From NCBI GenBank assembly GCA_038328135.1, contig JBBQLR010000002.1, forward strand, positions 12,936 through 76,935: a stretch of 64,000 nt of DNA. The letters run 5' to 3'. Below the pieces are notes generated by a model. It made no database searches and was not told the DNA's origin. It worked only from the letters and a program-made list of their open reading frames with translations. The translations under genes were made by a program, and so were the position numbers. This DNA comes from Patescibacteria group bacterium. Lineage in GTDB: Bacteria; Patescibacteriota; Microgenomatia; UBA1406; GWC2-37-13. Numbering within the stretch: the stretch's first letter is position 1; every line of letters begins with the position of its first letter. Shown one piece after another: positions 27,168 to 34,974 of the stretch.

Positions 27168-28862
27168 TTACATTTTTTGAACTGTTTGTATTCCGAGCAA
27201 ATTTAGACCATGTTTGACAATAGATGCCACTGCCTTTGTAATGGTAAGACGTATATATTTTTGGTTAGGCTCCGCCTTTAGTATAGGATTCTTTTGGTAG
27301 AACAGGTTATATTCTTTTGATAATTCATAGAGATAACTTGCAATGATGTTTGGCGATAATGTCGATGCTGCTTTATACACTTTATCGGTATATTGGTAGA
27401 TAAGTCGCAACATAAGTTTTTCATCAGGAGAAATGTCTTTTGGATACTGTCCCGAATTTTCTGTTTCTTTTGCTAAGATACTTTGTGTGCGGACATATGT
27501 GTAGAGGATATAGGGAGCGGAATTTCCCTCAAGGGAAATACTCTCATCTATATCAAACGCAATTTGGGTATTTGTTGAATTTTTAAGAAATGAATACTTC
27601 ACTGCTGCAACAGCAAGAGTTTCAACGATATCATTCGCATTCTCAAATTTTTCCAAAATCTTTTTCTTGATTTCATCCAGTAACCAAGATGCTTCAATTA
27701 CATTACCCGTTCTGGACGACATCTTACCCTCCTTCAACTTTACCCATTCATAGGCAAGGTGAAATTGTTTATTCCCGAATTTTTCTTTATCCAATAATTC
27801 TTCGACTTTAAACGTTATTTTAAAGAAGCTGGTTTGTTCTGGTGTAACGACATGGATGCATTTATCGAGTTTTCCAAAATCGCTAAATTCTTTTGCAGCA
27901 AGCCCTAATTCTTTTCCTTCATACGTGGGGTACCCAAGGCTGTTTATAAATACTCTTGTATCCAAGCCATACTGTTCTCCTTTAAAGACAACAGCTCCCT
28001 CGCTTTTTTCAAGGATTCCTTTTTCAAGAAGTTTTTTTGAGGTTTTTAATCCCTGTTCATGTACTTCACTTTCAAAATAACAACGATCAAAGTGGGAATA
28101 AACACGTTTATATATTTCTTCGTAATACTGTAAGCTCCAAGCTCTTGTAGTTGTCCAGAGCTCTGTTATTTCAGGAGAGTCTTTTTCATAAATATGCTTA
28201 TTTATGACAATTATTTCCGCTTTTGAAGCTTCATCTGATTCGTAGGCCGTCTGACCTTCTGAATATCCCCTTCCAAGCAATTTTATTTTTTCTTGCAGCG
28301 AAAGAGCTTCAAATAAGGATTTTCCATCTTTTTCAATCATTTTTTTTATTCCCCAGAGACATTTTGCGATATGAAGGCCAACATCTCCCTGATAATTAGT
28401 CCGGACAACGGTATTTCCAACGGCGGAAAGCATTCTCACGACTGATTCACCAGTAGAAATATTTCGTAAATGGCCGATATGGAACAATTTATGAGTATTG
28501 GGATGTGCAAACTCTACCATCGCTTTTTTTTCACTACCATAATAAAAAGTTTGAATAGCAAATATATTATTTACAGCCTTTTCAAGAGGTGTGATTAGCT
28601 CTTTTTTAGATAGCCAAATATTGATAAATCCAGGCTTAAGAACCTGAATCGATTCAATATACTCATTCGGCTTTATTTGAGATTTAATTTTTTCTGCTAG
28701 TTCAAGAGGGTTTTTCTTTAATTGTTTTGCTAGTATGAGGGCAATATTCGTCGAGAAATCCCCAAACTGAAGTTGGGGAATACTGATAGGTACTTCACCT
28801 GAAAAATCGATTTGGTTTTTTAGGATAGCTTTTGTAACTAGTTCTTTGATTTTCAATTCCAT
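27168..28862 (-). CDS. argS: arginine--tRNA ligase
   Basis: HIGH (HIGHLRN) and MSSRTG (KMSKS-type) class I motifs; anticodon-binding DALR domain length. Confidence 0.92.
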   Translation of the reverse strand: MELKIKELVTKAILKNQIDFSGEVPISIPQLQFGDFSTNIALILAKQLKKNPLELAEKIKSQIKPNEYIESIQVLKPGFINIWLSKKELITPLEKAVNNIFAIQTFYYGSEKKAMVEFAHPNTHKLFHIGHLRNISTGESVVRMLSAVGNTVVRTNYQGDVGLHIAKCLWGIKKMIEKDGKSLFEALSLQEKIKLLGRGYSEGQTAYESDEASKAEIIVINKHIYEKDSPEITELWTTTRAWSLQYYEEIYKRVYSHFDRCYFESEVHEQGLKTSKKLLEKGILEKSEGAVVFKGEQYGLDTRVFINSLGYPTYEGKELGLAAKEFSDFGKLDKCIHVVTPEQTSFFKITFKVEELLDKEKFGNKQFHLAYEWVKLKEGKMSSRTGNVIEASWLLDEIKKKILEKFENANDIVETLAVAAVKYSFLKNSTNTQIAFDIDESISLEGNSAPYILYTYVRTQSILAKETENSGQYPKDISPDEKLMLRLIYQYTDKVYKAASTLSPNIIASYLYELSKEYNLFYQKNPILKAEPNQKYIRLTITKAVASIVKHGLNLLGIQTVQKM

Positions 28863-28877
28863 ATTTTGTATATCATA

Positions 28878-29930
28878 TCACAATTCGGTGATACATTTTT
28901 TTATAATCTCGCATAATAACTGTAAGTCTATAACGGCAACCTGTTCTTCTGTAGTATGAGGTTTTTTGATTCCATCAGTCAGATTAACGGTTTCTATTCC
29001 CTGTGCATTTAAAACATTTGCATCGCTAATCCCTGAATGCATAAAAAATGTAGTATTTATGTTCAATTTCGTAAATACCTCGGAAATAGATTCGATAAAT
29101 AGAGCATCTTTCTCATGGGTATACCCAGCACAGAATCCGGATAGTTTAAAATCTACTCCAGCTCCAGTTTTTTTCGCCTGAGTATGTGCAATTGTTTTTA
29201 TATTCTGAATATGTTTATTAAATAATAGCTCACTATAGCTTCTTACTTCACCCTGAATTTGGATGAGATTTGGTACTATATTTATTCCCGCTCCTCCTTT
29301 TATAAGTCCAATATTTACAGTCGTTTCTCCTGCATCGAGATTGCCAACTGGAATTTGTACCATGGCTTCGAAAGCGGGCATGAAGGCATTGATACCCGTA
29401 TCCGGTTTGGAGGAATGGGTTGATATTCCGGTAAATTGGAGGTCGAAATTGGTGATGAAAGGAGATCTAAGCACGATACCGCCCAACGGGTTTGCACTGT
29501 CGAATATCAATGATTTCTTTGATTGAATTAAATCAAATTGAAAAAATTCAACACCACCACCAGTTTCCTCTTTCACTGTAAAAAGAAGTTCAATCGCACG
29601 ATTGTTTGTGGTTGTTTCAAGCGCGCACAAAAGGGAGGCTATGAAAGCTTTATTATCCGCCCCCAAAATTGTTTTCCCATCAGATGTAATTACTCCGTCT
29701 TTAACGATTGGATTTATATTCTCTCCCGGTTGGACCGTGTCCATATGTGCACAAAGTAATAGAGGTTCGCCATTCGCATTATTTTTAGCTAAAATATTTC
29801 CAACAGTATCGATTTGAAATGTAAAATCATGTGTTGTTAACCAATTTTGCAAATAAACGCTCATAAGTCCTTCTTTTCCTGAAGGACTGGAAATTTTGAC
29901 GAGTTCGATGAATTGTGATGTGATATCCAT
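28878..29930 (-). CDS. M20 family metallo-hydrolase (ArgE/PepT-like deacylase or peptidase)
   Basis: HMDTV, GADNKA and KEETGGG metal/catalytic motifs. Specificity cannot be read from the sequence. Confidence 0.75.
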   Translation of the reverse strand: MDITSQFIELVKISSPSGKEGLMSVYLQNWLTTHDFTFQIDTVGNILAKNNANGEPLLLCAHMDTVQPGENINPIVKDGVITSDGKTILGADNKAFIASLLCALETTTNNRAIELLFTVKEETGGGVEFFQFDLIQSKKSLIFDSANPLGGIVLRSPFITNFDLQFTGISTHSSKPDTGINAFMPAFEAMVQIPVGNLDAGETTVNIGLIKGGAGINIVPNLIQIQGEVRSYSELLFNKHIQNIKTIAHTQAKKTGAGVDFKLSGFCAGYTHEKDALFIESISEVFTKLNINTTFFMHSGISDANVLNAQGIETVNLTDGIKKPHTTEEQVAVIDLQLLCEIIKKCITEL

Positions 29931-29945
29931 ATAGTTAATAGTAAC

Positions 29946-30584
29946 TTATGGCGAATATAAAACGGGTTCATAAATGAAAATGGTTGATTCTGGCTCCCAG
30001 CCATCAAGGACATCAATACCCAGCTCAGCCAATGCTTTTTCTCTTTCCACAATTCTCCATTGGAGTCGTTTAAACACATGAAGAGAAGCCACATTGTCAA
30101 TTGTCACTACTGCTATTCTTTTAATTCCTGGGTACATTGAATTGCTGTCTTCAACCATTTGAGTTACTAATGCTCCCCCTAATCCTCTTCCTTGTTCTGC
30201 AGTATCCACAACGAGACTTCCGATTTCAACGCAGACAGGAACGGTATTTCCATTATAAATATCATCAAAATGTTCAGGCACTTCCGCCATTGCCCCTTTT
30301 TTTATTTCACACATATCATTTGACCCGACTACCCATGGAGACATCTTCACATAACCCGTGAGGGTATCCATATGATTTGTGGCAACAAGCGCATGTCCGG
30401 TTTCAATCGCGAATTGGAGGTTTTGAATAGGTGGTTGGAATGTATGTTCTCCACCCAATCTGAATAATAATTCAGAAGCCTGGGTTGCCCATCCTAATTT
30501 TGTATTGGGGTTTTGTGAATTCATCGATTCATGACTGAGAACCGAAATATGATGAGCAAAACCCTTATTATCAATCTCCGCCAT
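29946..30584 (-). CDS. GNAT-fold acetyltransferase-like protein (212 aa)
   Basis: Acetyl-CoA motif A: EQGRGLGGALV. Paralogous in layout to the 200-aa protein at 32056..32658. Confidence 0.6.
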   Translation of the reverse strand: MAEIDNKGFAHHISVLSHESMNSQNPNTKLGWATQASELLFRLGGEHTFQPPIQNLQFAIETGHALVATNHMDTLTGYVKMSPWVVGSNDMCEIKKGAMAEVPEHFDDIYNGNTVPVCVEIGSLVVDTAEQGRGLGGALVTQMVEDSNSMYPGIKRIAVVTIDNVASLHVFKRLQWRIVEREKALAELGIDVLDGWEPESTIFIYEPVLYSP

Positions 30585-30599
30585 AGGTATATTATTGAA

Positions 30600-32090
30600 T
30601 TATTTCTCGATACATTTTGTAACTTCTATAAGTAAATCTTGTTCTGCCTTAAGAAAATTATTCTCCTGTGTTTTATTCCATGATTCCAATCCTTTTAATT
30701 CTTTTTTCAATTTTTTATTGATTTTTAGAACATGTGTTGGTCCGGCAGTACCATCATATTGATATTGTTCTAATGCGTTATTTACGTCGAAAACCTCTTC
30801 GATAAACTTCTGCTCAATAGAAATAACACTTCCAGTAAGCTGTTTGACGGCAATTTCAACTACTTGATTATCAATCAAAGAGATATCACCCTTGACGATC
30901 CCTACAGATTTTCCGACAATCTTATGTGCTGTTCTGAAGGGGATTTTATATTTTTTTACCAGTTCATCAGCCAATTTTGTTGGGAGGGTAGATACGACCC
31001 CTGCTTTCATTACTTCCGGATTAGCCTTTAACTTGGATATCATATCTCCAACTATCAAAACGGTATTTACCGATTCTTCTAGAGACGATAGTATAGCTAT
31101 TTTACTTTCAGCACTATCTCTATTGTAACCGGATGGAGTCCCTTTCATAGCGATAAGAGCGTGATTTAGATTGGCAATTAATTTTGCACTTTTACCCTTT
31201 ATTTTTTCTGCAATATCGGGGTTCATTTTCTGTGGCATTATAGATGATCCTGTTGTAAATTCTTCTGAGATTGCAATATAATTTAATTCAGGAAGACTCC
31301 AAATGATAATATCTTCCATCATTCTCGATAAAATAGTCAGAAATAATGTGAGTTGACTTATAATTGCAGCATCTTCAATTCCTCTGTTATTTATTGCACT
31401 CAATGCATTGTTGAATGGTTTGGAAAATCCAAGTAAATTTGCTGTCATCTCGGTATTAATTTTCCAATTCACCCCATATGAAGCTCCAGCACCAAGAGGA
31501 CAGGAATCATAGACTTCACATGTGTATATCAATAGCTTATGAATACTGAGAATCTGATCTAAATATGATTGCCACCAAAAACCGAAAGAGGAGGGCATTG
31601 CCCCTCTCATATGGGTAAATCCAGGCATAACCGTATATGAGTATTTCTCCGCTTTTTCCCACAGAATAGTTTCAAAGTGTATTAATCCATTAAAAAAATC
31701 GAACAAATATTTTTTTGTGATTAATTTTTGATCAGTAACTGTTTGGTCATTTCTACTTCTTCCAATATGGAACCATTCGGCGTCATCACCGATAAGCTTT
31801 GTCAATTTACTTTCAACATTTTCATGAACGTCACCAATCTGTGGGTCGACTATTTGACCACTCTTGGCTATTGGTAAAAGATTTAACAGACCTTGCAGTA
31901 TTTTTTTAGTGCTTTTTTTTGGGACAATTCCGCACTTCGCCAACATTACATTATGAGCCATTGTTTCCAATAGATAATAGGACGCAATTTTGTTTTCAAT
32001 TACTGTCATTGCTGGGTCCATAATAAATTGATCTGTTTTTTGAGAGGGCCCTTGGTTATAAATCCCCCCATAGATTTTGTTGTTTGACAT
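30600..32090 (-). CDS. argH: argininosuccinate lyase
   Basis: GRSRNDQTVTD and GSSIMPQKMNPD fumarate-lyase/ArgH signatures. Confidence 0.9.
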   Translation of the reverse strand: MSNNKIYGGIYNQGPSQKTDQFIMDPAMTVIENKIASYYLLETMAHNVMLAKCGIVPKKSTKKILQGLLNLLPIAKSGQIVDPQIGDVHENVESKLTKLIGDDAEWFHIGRSRNDQTVTDQKLITKKYLFDFFNGLIHFETILWEKAEKYSYTVMPGFTHMRGAMPSSFGFWWQSYLDQILSIHKLLIYTCEVYDSCPLGAGASYGVNWKINTEMTANLLGFSKPFNNALSAINNRGIEDAAIISQLTLFLTILSRMMEDIIIWSLPELNYIAISEEFTTGSSIMPQKMNPDIAEKIKGKSAKLIANLNHALIAMKGTPSGYNRDSAESKIAILSSLEESVNTVLIVGDMISKLKANPEVMKAGVVSTLPTKLADELVKKYKIPFRTAHKIVGKSVGIVKGDISLIDNQVVEIAVKQLTGSVISIEQKFIEEVFDVNNALEQYQYDGTAGPTHVLKINKKLKKELKGLESWNKTQENNFLKAEQDLLIEVTKCIEK

Positions 32091-32658
32091 AGTCTTGGTA
32101 TAGTGAACTGGTAATCATTCCCTTCATATCAATAATAGTTTCAGGATGATCCGTCTCACCCTCCTGAGCCGCCAACATATTAGGAACGTAAGATGGGCGT
32201 TTTATAATAGTTCCACCATAAGACAATAATATACGTAGAGGCATGGGATTATCAGAGGAACATACCGCAAATAGATCGGCTTGAGGATCAAATTTGTCGT
32301 GGTATGCCTTAATCGCCCCAACTAACGCTAAAGTACCATAGCCCTTACCTCCACTAGAAGAAAACCAAGTGGAGAATTCGTACCCCAGAACATCACCCTC
32401 CGTTGCCACATAGGGGTACAATTTTGCAAAAGCCATCAATTGGCTATCGACCATTACTGCAGAGGCTAAGCCTTCTTTCATAAACTCTATGAGTTTTTCT
32501 TTCGTTTGTTTTACCATGTGACCAGACGCAACATGAGAGGCTAGTATGGGTAACGCTTGATTAGCTATAAGTTGTTTATGCGCATGGGGAACCGTCTGTA
32601 TAGCTTTTCCAGCATATATAGTCGTACACATCTTAACAATTTTTTGTTTGTTTTTCAT
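32056..32658 (-). CDS. GNAT-like protein (200 aa) between argG and argH
   Basis: Start at MKNKQK forms an ATGA overlap with the argG stop. SSGGKGYGTLALVGAI resembles GNAT motif A. The track ORF from 32751 is an over-extension inside argG. Confidence 0.5.
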   Translation of the reverse strand: MKNKQKIVKMCTTIYAGKAIQTVPHAHKQLIANQALPILASHVASGHMVKQTKEKLIEFMKEGLASAVMVDSQLMAFAKLYPYVATEGDVLGYEFSTWFSSSGGKGYGTLALVGAIKAYHDKFDPQADLFAVCSSDNPMPLRILLSYGGTIIKRPSYVPNMLAAQEGETDHPETIIDMKGMITSSLYQDYVKQQNLWGDL

Positions 32659-33869
32659 TGTAGACTCCCTCCTTTTGTTGATTTTTTTGCTGCGATTACT
32701 GACTGCAATCCATAGAGCTTTACAAATCCATTCACCTCTTCTTTTGTCCATGATTTACTTTGAGCATACTGAGCCACTTTTGGATCGATAAGGGACTGAG
32801 GAGTCAATACTGATACAGGTAGTGCATTGCCATATTCTAGTTTCATCAGTACTTTCCCCGTGACTTTCTTTTGTTGTGAAGTAATAAATGCCTTCAGATC
32901 CGTAACAAATGGATTATAGAATTTTCCATTATAAATATATTCAGTCAGTTCTTTGTCGATAGACTCACCAAAATATATCTGTGGTTTTGCCAAGACATAT
33001 TGTTCGAGGGCTTTATGGGCTTTTATGAGGAATAAGAGGCCAGGAGCTTCAAAGACAAGATGGCCTTTAATACCAATCATGCAGTCACCGGTATAATATT
33101 CTTTACCAAAGCCGTATTTCCCAACCTCGGTATTGAGTATATCTAGAATGGTCCATCCCTCCATGGATTTTCCATTTAGTTTGTAAGGAACCCCTTCCTG
33201 GAAATCAATTTCAAAATACTCTTGTTTATCTGTTTTTTCACCAGTTACCCAGCTAAACATATTCTGTTCCGGTTCACAGTTTTCGTCAATTTCAGAACCA
33301 GAATAGGTAATACCGGCAAGACTCACATTAATACTATATTTTTTATGAGTTGCACTCACGTTATACCCTTTTTTAGCTAGATATTGCTTTTCTTCTTCTC
33401 TATTACCGCCCATGTCCTTAATCGGTTCAATTATTTCAATATCCGGAGCAAGAATTTTTGCCGTGATATTGAAGCGAATTTGATCGTTGCCCATACCTGT
33501 ATTGCCATTAGCGATGGCTTGTGCTTTTTCCTTCTTGGCAATTTCAACGCATTTTTCAACGATATGATAACGCTGAGATGAGACTATATTTGGATAGAAG
33601 CCTTCATACAAGCCATTGGATTTAATAATCCAAGACAGCATCGAATCAAAGTAGTATTTTTTTGAGTCGATTTGATAATGTTTTATTGCCCCCAATTGCT
33701 TTGATTTTTGCGCTATCTCCTCTTTTTCTGCATGGGAAAAGCCACCAGAATCCACTGTTACAGTAATAACCTCAAATCCTTTATCCATAAGATAAGGGAC
33801 GCAGAAACTCGTATCTAGGCCGCCTGAAAATGCTAAAATGACTTTTTTTTGATCTTTATTTTTTTTCAT
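32655..33869 (-). CDS. argG: argininosuccinate synthase (divergent)
   Basis: AFSGGLDTS PP-loop, NGNTGMGNDQIRF (canonical xGxTGKGNDQVRF), and C-terminal synthetase domain. Confidence 0.85.
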   Translation of the reverse strand: MKKNKDQKKVILAFSGGLDTSFCVPYLMDKGFEVITVTVDSGGFSHAEKEEIAQKSKQLGAIKHYQIDSKKYYFDSMLSWIIKSNGLYEGFYPNIVSSQRYHIVEKCVEIAKKEKAQAIANGNTGMGNDQIRFNITAKILAPDIEIIEPIKDMGGNREEEKQYLAKKGYNVSATHKKYSINVSLAGITYSGSEIDENCEPEQNMFSWVTGEKTDKQEYFEIDFQEGVPYKLNGKSMEGWTILDILNTEVGKYGFGKEYYTGDCMIGIKGHLVFEAPGLLFLIKAHKALEQYVLAKPQIYFGESIDKELTEYIYNGKFYNPFVTDLKAFITSQQKKVTGKVLMKLEYGNALPVSVLTPQSLIDPKVAQYAQSKSWTKEEVNGFVKLYGLQSVIAAKKSTKGGSLQ

Positions 33870-33892
33870 AAGTGTATAAATGTTGTTAACCC

Positions 33893-33920
33893 AAAAAAAA
33901 TCCCCCGTAAATTGCGGGGG
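33893..33920 (-). terminator. intrinsic terminator 23 nt upstream of the argG start (attenuator terminator)
   Basis: Minus strand CCCCCG / loop CAAUUUA / CGGGGG, then A plus U8 (plus 33893-33900). Confidence 0.7.
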
Positions 33921-33974
33921 TGAGTAGTAGTGAAAGGGTTATTTATTTTGCAGAACAATACCTACTACTCTCCC
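33918..33974 (-). promoter_or_regulatory. putative antiterminator helix competing with the argG leader terminator
   Basis: GGGAGAGUAGUAG (plus 33962-33974) pairs with CUACUACUCACCC (plus 33918-33930): 12 bp with one A.A mismatch. The final CCC belongs to the terminator 5' arm. Confidence 0.55.
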
Positions 33975-34023
33975 TGGAGCTTCGCCTTAAGCAAGTGAAT
34001 TGGGATGTACTAATAGATATCAT
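33943..34023 (-). CDS. putative argG leader peptide, 26 codons with 4 Arg codons
   Basis: MISISTSQFTCLRRSSRESSRYCSAK. The ATG lies 7 nt after a -10 box (leaderless geometry). Arg codons at 13, 14, 17 and 21. The ORF overlaps the antiterminator 5' strand. Confidence 0.45.
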   Translation of the reverse strand: MISISTSQFTCLRRSSRESSRYCSAK

Positions 34024-34030
34024 AAATGTC

Positions 34031-34059
34031 ATTTTACAGAATAGTCCTATAATTGTCAA
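34031..34059 (-). promoter_or_regulatory. sigma-70-type promoter of the argG leader
   Basis: Minus strand TTGACA (34059-34054), 17 nt, TAAAAT (34036-34031). Confidence 0.65.
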
Positions 34060-34085
34060 ATTATTTTCGGGGCTTTGTAAAACAC

Positions 34086-34114
34086 TTGTCTTGAGGGAAA
34101 TGAAGAACTACAAT
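34086..34114 (+). promoter_or_regulatory. promoter of the PEGA/SH3 gene
   Basis: TTGTCT 34086-34091, 17 nt, TACAAT 34109-34114, 8 nt, ATG 34123. No SD. Confidence 0.5.
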
Positions 34115-34122
34115 ATGAATGT

Positions 34123-34974
34123 ATGAAAGGGAAGTTAAAGTTTATTGCTGTTTTAAGCATCGCATTTGTCGCCTTTGTGCTGATTAAGCTTTTCTTTGAT
34201 ATAGCCTCAAAAAAAGAGGGAAGACTACAGGTTTTTTCACGGCCCAGTGCGGCTGTTTTTGTTGACAATGTGATGAAAGGTAATACGCCGTATGTAAATA
34301 CATTTAAAGAGGGTGAATATCTCCTTAAAATCGTTCCTGATGGTGTGGCTACCTCAGCTGCATCATGGCAGAAAAAAATATCTATATTTTCCGGAGCTCT
34401 CACCTATGTCGACGTGCAGCTGGAAAGCACTGATATTTCCACATGGGCAGACTTGTATTGGTTAACGAAATTAGGCGGATTTAGCTCGGCAAGTGGGCTC
34501 ACCATAGAGACGGAGCCATCTGGTGCTTTACTATATATCGATAATGATGAAAAAGGGGTATCCCCTCTCACGTTGGAAAACGTATCGCAGGGAAGTCATG
34601 AATTGTCTGTATTTATGCCGGGATTCAGCAGAAGATCAAAGAAAATAAATATAAGCCCTGGGTTTCAACTGCATGGATATATTAAGCTTGCTCTTGACCC
34701 CAGCCAAAAGTCCCAATACTCAATAATAGAACCCTCTCCAATCGCAACTGCTTCAGCTTTAGTTAAAGAACCAGCAAATACCGTTCGTATCCTTGACACA
34801 CCAACAGGTTGGCTTCGCGTACGAAATGAGCCTACTCTTGAAGGAAGTGAATCCGCACGAGTTAACCCTGGTCAGCGATTTGAACTACTTGAAGAGCAGG
34901 CAGGATGGTATAAAATCAAGATAGATTCAGCTGTGCAAGGATGGATTTCTTCCCAATACGCAGAAAAAAAGTAA
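34123..34974 (+). CDS. membrane-anchored protein with two PEGA domains and a C-terminal bacterial SH3 domain
   Basis: N-terminal TM. PEGA-like repeats (VFVDNVMKGNTPY, LYIDNDEKGVSPL). C-terminal GWLRVRNEP...GWYKI...GWISSQY is SH3b-like. Confidence 0.7.
   Translation: MKGKLKFIAVLSIAFVAFVLIKLFFDIASKKEGRLQVFSRPSAAVFVDNVMKGNTPYVNTFKEGEYLLKIVPDGVATSAASWQKKISIFSGALTYVDVQLESTDISTWADLYWLTKLGGFSSASGLTIETEPSGALLYIDNDEKGVSPLTLENVSQGSHELSVFMPGFSRRSKKINISPGFQLHGYIKLALDPSQKSQYSIIEPSPIATASALVKEPANTVRILDTPTGWLRVRNEPTLEGSESARVNPGQRFELLEEQAGWYKIKIDSAVQGWISSQYAEKK

Follow-up and report, generated by a model that had tools for sequence, protein, structure and literature searches.

What controls transcription of argG, the argininosuccinate synthase gene, in a Patescibacteria group bacterium of the class Microgenomatia (UBA1406; GWC2-37-13)? 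The gene lies on the minus strand of the 64,000-nt stretch analysed here (the window: contig JBBQLR010000002.1 of assembly GCA_038328135.1, positions 12,936–76,935 of the forward strand; G+C content, 38%), and its identity, proposed in a preliminary description made from the letters alone, is confirmed by Pfam. That description had also proposed that the region just ahead of argG is a leader-peptide attenuator of the trp/his type. The leader feature is real and conserved, and the attenuation proposal is supported by a conserved open reading frame (ORF), a pair of arginine codons, alternative helices and a terminator, with no match to an Rfam family. We put at roughly 0.77 the probability that the element is a ribosome-mediated, trp/his-type transcription attenuator that would sense charged tRNA-Arg on behalf of an argG–argH–argE-like operon.

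The leader was read on the minus strand (33700–34400 of the window) and compared with argG loci drawn from a genome collection, exact-protein look-ups and a metagenome scan, all of which were then searched with a covariance model. The metagenome scan was anchored on an ArgG alignment. The peptide patterns derived from it lacked specificity, most of the proteins retrieved being approximately 40%-identical ArgG from unrelated bacteria, and only three of its loci were useful (L012, L014 and L015). The comparison comprises 17 homologous leaders: those of the window, L090, L001–L004, L006, L088, L091, L093, L095–L098 and L015, and two in L014. The covariance model was built from 13 leaders and used to align 16; it matched each in-clade locus once (window, 33890–34023, 89.7 bits) and gave no match in the distant ArgG loci searched. 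ArgG proteins of the leader-bearing loci are 44–77% identical to that of the window, the closest matches (62–77%) being from metagenome-assembled genomes labelled Candidatus Roizmanbacteria or Patescibacteria. We take conservation in the 16 further leaders to be the decisive evidence that the arrangement stands above chance.

Reading frame, arginine codons and start of the leader

The ORF described earlier is present, with 26 codons, a TAA stop and four Arg codons (AGG CGA at codons 13–14, AGG at codon 17 and AGG at codon 21). Its homologues have 16–26 codons and end in TAA in 17/17 leaders. A reading-frame check covered 14 leaders, all of which have frame 0 open and several stops in each of the +1 and +2 frames; the ORF in three further leaders was confirmed separately. 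The distance from the ATG to the first codon of the Arg pair, AGG, is 30, 33 or 36 nt and takes no other value (AGG being codon 11–13), and insertions and deletions ahead of the Arg codons are multiples of three, several of them independent and some forming compensating +3/−3 pairs (noted in L004/L095, L006, L002/L091, L093 and one of the two L014 leaders, L014b). The leader ORF is evidently under reading-frame constraint.

The AGG codon is invariant across the 17 leaders, and the codon after it is CGA in eight (L098 included), AGA in six, CGT in two and CAT (His) in one (L090), so that the second codon specifies arginine in 16/17. Selection on codon meaning is suggested because three synonymous Arg codons occur at one position. 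In a survey of codon usage and start sites in the 55 window ORFs of at least 150 amino acids, AGG made up 9% of Arg codons and Arg 3.6% of all codons; AGA is the commonest Arg codon in window genes. The preliminary description had cautioned that the enrichment in Arg codons could be a by-product of RNA structure. This caution applies to Arg17 and Arg21, which are not conserved beyond the closest relatives of the window and appear to be by-products of the purine-rich strand, but not to the pair at codons 13–14, which is conserved. Leaders of the window/L090 type and those of the L001 type share no conserved peptide sequence beyond the Arg pair, which makes a functional peptide unlikely, and the Ser, Leu and Ile codons of the ORF do not keep their positions. 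A Shine–Dalgarno (SD)-like reading of AAGGAGA at the Arg codons was rejected: there is no start codon behind it, and SD motifs are scarce in this genome.

The promoter noted earlier (TTGACA and TAAAAT) is present on the minus strand, as is the ATG at its described distance from the −10 box, and with a match of 11/12 it is the best sigma-70-like site across the 8 kb covered by our promoter and terminator scan. The relatives mostly rely on an extended −10 box (TGnTATAAT) in place of a −35 hexamer, and a strong −10 box stands 6–10 nt ahead of the ATG in 16/16 model-aligned leaders; in L098, the best −10 match is weak (4/6). Among the 55 surveyed window genes, three have an SD-like tetramer upstream and 18 have a −10-like hexamer ending 5–10 nt before the ATG (5.8 expected from other offsets), with the gap peaking at 6 and 8 nt. 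The start layout of the leader ORF thereby matches that of many real genes of the organism. The few SD motifs and the many −10 boxes close to an ATG suggest that leaderless mRNAs predominate in this candidate phyla radiation (CPR) organism, and the earlier guess of a leaderless ORF fits the genome: the leader transcript, its start placed by promoter geometry, is probably leaderless.

On the opposite strand, a promoter-like site (34026–34053, plus strand; ATGTCA, 16 nt, TATAAT; 10/12) lies back to back over the minus-strand promoter, approximately 70 nt upstream of a divergent PEGA/SH3 gene (34123). The two may be overlapping divergent promoters.

Alternative helices and the terminator

Two helices of a switch had been recognized in the preliminary description, and both are present; a third, between the start of the ORF (strand 1) and the antiterminator strand (strand 2), had been overlooked. 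Because the ORF start pairs with the antiterminator strand, the four-strand design is complete, with 1:2 as anti-antiterminator, 2:3 as antiterminator and 3:4 as terminator (Table 1). The fold of the 140-nt leader is more stable than those of shuffled sequences (z = −2.3). For helix 1:2, the window duplex has an energy of −18.0 kcal/mol (z = −2.8; 1/300 shuffles as good), and the duplexes of the leaders, significant in each of them, range from −14 to −24 kcal/mol with z of −2.4 to −6.8 (dinucleotide shuffles of strand 1). For helix 2:3, the pairing reported for the window, GGGAGAGUAGUAG (33974–33962) with CUACUACUCACCC (33930–33918) over 12 bp with one A·A mismatch, was recovered; it is modestly better than shuffles (z = −1.9; 16/300), and the leaders as a set range from −14 to −26 kcal/mol with z of −1.1 to −4.7.

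Conservation of the pairing was assessed in the model-based alignment. The RNAalifold consensus of 13 leaders is helix 2:3, which is 91% paired against 40–73% with a slid partner and has five pairs with two-sided changes, its covariation score exceeding those of 500/500 shuffles (figures somewhat inflated, as explained below); in L096, for example, GGGUAG has become GGAUAG and UUACC has become UUAUC. Helix 1:2 is 82% paired against 52–57% when slid. Compensatory changes were found in 2:3; covariation in 1:2 is not significant, partly because the window, L090 and L006 have strand 1 in a different register, and this helix was therefore judged by duplex tests on the individual sequences. The orthologous leaders keep the ORF, the Arg–Arg pair, both helices and, L098 excepted, the terminator.

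The Arg pair falls within the loop that separates strand 1 from strand 2, and its distance from the GGGA that opens strand 2 is 7 nt in 15/16 model-aligned leaders (the motif in L093 is GGAG). The AUG is conserved in L004 and L095 although it lies outside helix 1:2. A small hairpin between strands 1 and 2 occurs in most relatives, in shifted registers, and is a possible RNA polymerase pause hairpin.

The terminator also stands as described: its U8 tract ends 23 nt ahead of the argG ATG, and the hairpin was called as a terminator by our scan. Every relative except L098 has a terminator, with perfect hairpins and U-runs and differing stem sequences. Seven relatives (L001, L002, L003, L088, L091, L093 and L095) carry two terminators in series, and tandem terminators are apparent by eye in one of the L014 leaders (L014a). 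In the tandem leaders, each terminator has its own upstream stretch complementary to strand 2. The second of these partners is the stronger and reaches the GGCC beside the ORF stop, which accounts for the UGG that is conserved immediately behind the first U-tract; with such partners, a single sensor strand could inactivate both terminators in succession. Only one terminator is present in the window, and its strand 3 resembles the second type. A reading of the conserved UGG as the start of an ORF was rejected, no ORF being conserved there. In the minimum-energy fold of the window, a conserved GGG just after U8 (33887–33892, minus strand) pairs with AACCCU (about 33936–33941) and so encloses strand 3 and the terminator; the equivalent UGG belongs to the second antiterminator in the tandem relatives.

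From these elements we infer the following course of events. Transcription would begin at, or within approximately 3 nt of, the leader AUG, yielding a leaderless mRNA on which a ribosome loads at the 5′ AUG and translates the 26-codon ORF behind the moving RNA polymerase. When arginine is scarce, the ribosome would stall with AGG or CGA (codons 13–14) in the A site, where it would occupy the loop between strands 1 and 2 and block helix 1:2. The leading edge of a ribosome lies approximately 12–13 nt beyond the first P-site nucleotide, and that of the stalled ribosome would come to rest just before strand 2. Left free, strand 2 would pair with the emerging strand 3, holding the three bottom C of the terminator and setting a rigid helix against the base of its stem, and polymerase would read through into argG. 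With plentiful arginine, the ribosome would reach the UAA just past strand 2 and cover that strand, and transcription would terminate at U8. If there were no translation, helix 1:2 would form and termination would again be expected.

Table 1. Features of the argG leader and of the genes downstream, in window coordinates.
Feature	Positions	Strand	Basis or remark
−35 hexamer TTGACA	34054–34059	-	Direct reading; L090 has one too
−10 hexamer TAAAAT	34031–34036	-	17-nt spacer from −35; 7 nt ahead of ATG
Leader ORF MISISTSQFTCLRRSSRESSRYCSAK, 26 codons + TAA	33943–34023	-	Direct reading; frame open in relatives; leaderless transcript probable
Strand 1 (anti-antiterminator), first 22 nt of ORF including AUG	34002–34023	-	Minimum-energy folds
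Small hairpin UUGCU-UAA-GGCGA between strands 1 and 2	33982–33994	-	Folds; 3′ arm is the Arg codons
Candidate regulatory Arg codons AGG CGA (codons 13–14)	33982–33987	-	Conserved in relatives
Strand 2, GGGAGAGUAGUAGGUAUUGU	33955–33974	-	Pairs with strand 1, or (33974–33962) with strand 3
Strand 3, CUACUACUCACCC, antiterminator partner	33918–33930	-	Last 3 nt are terminator base
Intrinsic terminator CCCCCG / loop CAAUUUA / CGGGGG, A, U8	33893–33920	-	6-bp stem, 33920–33902
argG (argininosuccinate synthase), first gene controlled in the model	32655–33869	-	Pfam PF00764, PF20979
Rest of likely controlled operon	28878–32751	-	Same gene order in relatives
Small ORF between argG and argH	32056–32751	-	No Pfam or NCBIfam match
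argH	30600–32090	-	
GNAT gene	29946–30584	-	
M20/ArgE-like deacylase	28878–29930	-	

Weighing attenuation against its alternatives

Several points weigh against attenuation by a stalled ribosome. The leaders are mutually related, so that counts among them are not counts of independent events. The sensor consists of only two Arg codons, and L090 has a single Arg there (AGG CAT); L098 keeps an Arg–Arg ORF without a recognizable terminator. Covariation in helix 1:2 is not significant in the model-based alignment, and the pair counts for helix 2:3 come from an alignment that was fitted to the 2:3 structure. The remaining points concern energetics. The antiterminator shares only 2–4 nt with each terminator 5′ arm, free RNA favours the full terminator together with a truncated 2:3 by 0–4.1 kcal/mol (3.7 in the window), and, by calculation, passing from the antiterminator form to the terminator form means crossing a barrier of only approximately 3.4 kcal/mol. 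The two helices had been called mutually exclusive, which holds for 3 nt in the window (C33920–C33918) but not for the other 9 bp of 2:3, which can coexist with the full terminator.

An equilibrium switch was rejected on this account: with a ribosome stalled at the Arg codons, the RNA that remains unoccupied does not of its own accord fold into an antiterminated structure. Because the overlap is small and the free-RNA energies favour the terminator, switching would be kinetic or steric and not purely thermodynamic. Antitermination would then need kinetic or steric help from the polymerase context, and we regard it as still likely. The shared nucleotides are the bottom pairs of the 6-bp stem, which would form last and in competition with the RNA:DNA hybrid, and a rigid helix of 9–12 bp only 1 nt from the stem base should impede completion of the hairpin in the polymerase exit channel.

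Among the alternatives, the one that survives best, itself unlikely, is a translation-independent riboregulator (a small riboswitch, or an RNA to which a tRNA or a protein binds). A ligand or factor at the AGG-NGN loop would stabilize helix 1:2 as a P1 stem, strand 3 would be released, the terminator would form, and the ORF would be incidental. Such a device would suit a long conserved helix 1:2 around a loop with a conserved island (AGG.G.) 7 nt from strand 2, and in a sister lineage this position is indeed taken by a T-box, a sensor made of RNA alone. A conserved CCAAUU falls in different frames in the window and L090, which implies conservation partly at the RNA level, but its CCAA is accounted for by helix 1:2, in which it pairs with UUGG. 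An incidental ORF is difficult to reconcile with a frame that is open in 14/14 leaders in which the other two are closed, with indels before the Arg codons in multiples of three, and with a second Arg codon that varies only synonymously in 16/17 leaders; in addition, the spacing of the AUG from the −10 box is that of leaderless genes, and the AUG is kept even when unpaired.

Searches for known RNA families bear on the same alternative. Rfam 15 gave no match at the gathering threshold in the whole window or in ten related loci; at a permissive threshold, the best match to the leader was a eukaryotic snoRNA (E = 0.26), and the T-box model (RF00230) had no match in 33800–34200 at E up to 10. This negative is informative because the same search finds a T-box upstream of argG in L099 (ArgG 58% identical; 2201–2439; E = 5e-16; 73 bits, short of the 93 set as gathering score). 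With L099 as a positive control, a T-box or a known riboswitch was ruled out at both thresholds, in keeping with the earlier remark that the leader has no recognizable core of either kind. The L099 T-box precedes the same argG–X–argH–M20 operon (X, the small ORF), and alignment to the model tentatively gives it a CGC (Arg) specifier. It looks like a replacement of one device by the other, T-box or leader-peptide attenuator, at the same operon, and control of the operon by tRNA-Arg charging seems to be a conserved theme served by two different devices. Strand 2 was also considered as a TRAP-like site of (G/U)AG repeats, a reading that was dropped because neither the number of repeats nor their spacing would fit.

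Slightly less probable again is a translation-coupled attenuator that reads general translation capacity, or the slow decoding of rare codons, in place of arginine, any slowdown leading to readthrough. Two sensor codons are few, the invariant AGG is rare and could be decoded slowly at all times, and the ORF is also rich in Ser codons; yet these Ser codons, like those for Leu and Ile, are not conserved in position, and the second codon stays Arg through three different codons, one of them the commonest, AGA. The element also occurs only before arginine-pathway genes (argG and the ArgE-like M20 gene), and the tentative Arg specifier of the L099 T-box points the same way. Very improbable, finally, is an ordinary promoter with an idle ORF and either a partial terminator that acts constitutively or a hairpin that arose by chance, or an ORF that encodes a functional small protein: the window 2:3 duplex is marginal against shuffles and terminator-like sites in the region are about as numerous as shuffling predicts, but the arrangement is kept in 17 leaders, terminators with differing stems are always present except in L098, a second arginine gene has acquired a copy of the element, and a small protein would have to do without a conserved sequence beyond Arg–Arg.

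Operon context and comparison with known systems

The leaders always stand upstream of arginine genes, either argG or, in L014, also an ArgE-like M20 gene. L014 holds two copies, at 73–192 (before the M20/ArgE-like gene, 200–1252) and at 1316–1441 (before argG), both with AGG CGT, which together appear to form a small arginine 'ribulon'. The argG genes behind the leaders of L014 (1501–2742) and L015 (1462–2712) encode proteins only 44% identical to that of the window, and the leaders are nearly unchanged (123 bits for that of L015); here the structural gene appears to have been replaced and the regulatory module retained. The L098 leader (1771–1862; a weak model match, 22 bits, E = 0.019) lies between an M20 gene and argG and has a shortened ORF, MKNIFFTISALRRHSI, with AGG CGA; it could be a decaying copy or a differently acting variant. 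A comparable leader was not found in the 20 distant ArgG loci scanned, nor in L100 (Shapirobacteria), which has only a hairpin and a U-run before the ATG.

Side observations concern the genes themselves. In L093 (2550–2975) and also L094, a 141-codon gene without a Pfam match is inserted between the leader terminators and argG, a position that would place it under the same attenuator. The small ORF between argG and argH has a weak GNAT match in L091 and might encode a short N-acetylglutamate synthase-like domain; in L093, L094 and L095, a single 666-residue gene with ArgH domains (PF00206 and PF14698; 4212–6212 in L093/L095) takes the place of the small ORF and argH, which suggests a fusion of the two. 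On the same strand of the window, argS starts 15 nt after the M20 gene (28862–28900 region), and an extended −10-like box (TGaTATGAT) ends 9 nt before its ATG; argS may be both co-transcribed with the operon and separately promoted.

Leader-peptide attenuation is textbook knowledge for Trp, His, Leu, Thr, Phe and Ile/Val. As in Escherichia coli trpL and the his, leu, thr, phe and ilv attenuators, the leader described here has a short ORF in which codons for the cognate amino acid stand in tandem (trpL, too, has two), four strands that pair as 1:2, 2:3 and 3:4, an intrinsic terminator directly ahead of the first gene of the biosynthetic operon and a stop codon that would let an unstalled ribosome cover strand 2. 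It differs from that class in the amino acid sensed, in an ORF start that would be leaderless and lacks a Shine–Dalgarno sequence, in its CPR host, in Arg codons that lie in the strand 1–2 loop and not inside strand 1, in an antiterminator/terminator overlap of 2–4 nt and in the tandem terminators of many relatives. It has no sequence similarity to Rfam leader families. In fungi, the arginine attenuator peptide (the arg-2/CPA1 upstream ORF) senses free arginine in the ribosome tunnel and stalls at high arginine. There, too, an upstream ORF and ribosome stalling tie an arginine-pathway gene to arginine, whereas the peptide here is unconserved and stalling would be expected at the Arg codons and at low arginine. 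The T-box likewise reads tRNA charging and chooses between antiterminator and terminator before the argG operon, but it binds uncharged tRNA directly, without a ribosome, and has approximately 240 nt with a Stem I and a specifier loop; the window leader measures approximately 130 nt from AUG to U-tract and has a conserved ORF.

Two bacterial systems come closer in single respects. Mycobacterial polycysteine leaderless short ORFs stall ribosomes at cognate codons at several loci, a 'ribulon' (bioRxiv 10.1101/834739). Like the argG leader ORF, itself probably leaderless, they are unannotated leaderless first cistrons with multiple copies in a pathway (compare argG and M20 in L014); the amino acid and the phylum are different, and there stalling keeps the downstream ribosome-binding site (RBS) from being sequestered in a structure, a translational mechanism, whereas here the target would be an intrinsic terminator in a genome that hardly uses an RBS. 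In the Salmonella speF leader, orf34 has two consecutive Arg codons and senses arginine through ribosome pausing (PMC6386406). It resembles the present case in that an Arg–Arg upstream ORF selects between alternative mRNA structures and differs in its target (ornithine decarboxylase), in its outputs (Rho-dependent termination, RBS unfolding and RNase G decay) and in its long leader with a normal start.

Control of arginine synthesis has been ascribed to the ArgR repressor or, in some Firmicutes, to T-boxes (PMC1262725). Among the surveys cited here (PMC2965389 and PMC1262725), that of 2005 lists RNA-level control of arginine through T-boxes only, and that of 2010, on premature terminators, has no arginine case. 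We found no Arg leader-peptide attenuator of arginine biosynthesis in the full-text literature searched, which leaves out most papers from subscription journals, and nothing relevant on leaderless translation or Shine–Dalgarno use in CPR bacteria in the full-text literature searched. Judging from sequence comparison, we lean towards regarding this leader as the first arginine-sensing leader-peptide attenuator of an arginine-biosynthesis operon, with a leaderless ORF, in Roizmanbacteria-like CPR bacteria, together with its tandem-terminator version, its regulon of argG and the ArgE-like gene, and its interchangeability with an Arg T-box.

A case for Arg would close a gap that has long existed in the amino acids covered by leader-peptide attenuation and would demonstrate that a pair of codons suffices when its distance from the sensor strand is fixed. 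The family is compact (approximately 130 nt), and its tandem-terminator variants would be a natural design for low-leak attenuators. CPR bacteria, which are uncultured, combine small genomes with reduced ribosomes. A conserved attenuator implies that these bacteria would use leaderless initiation, keep ribosomes close behind the polymerase and regulate arginine synthesis from citrulline or ornithine; if true, it would be direct sequence evidence of transcription–translation coupling in ultra-small uncultured bacteria.

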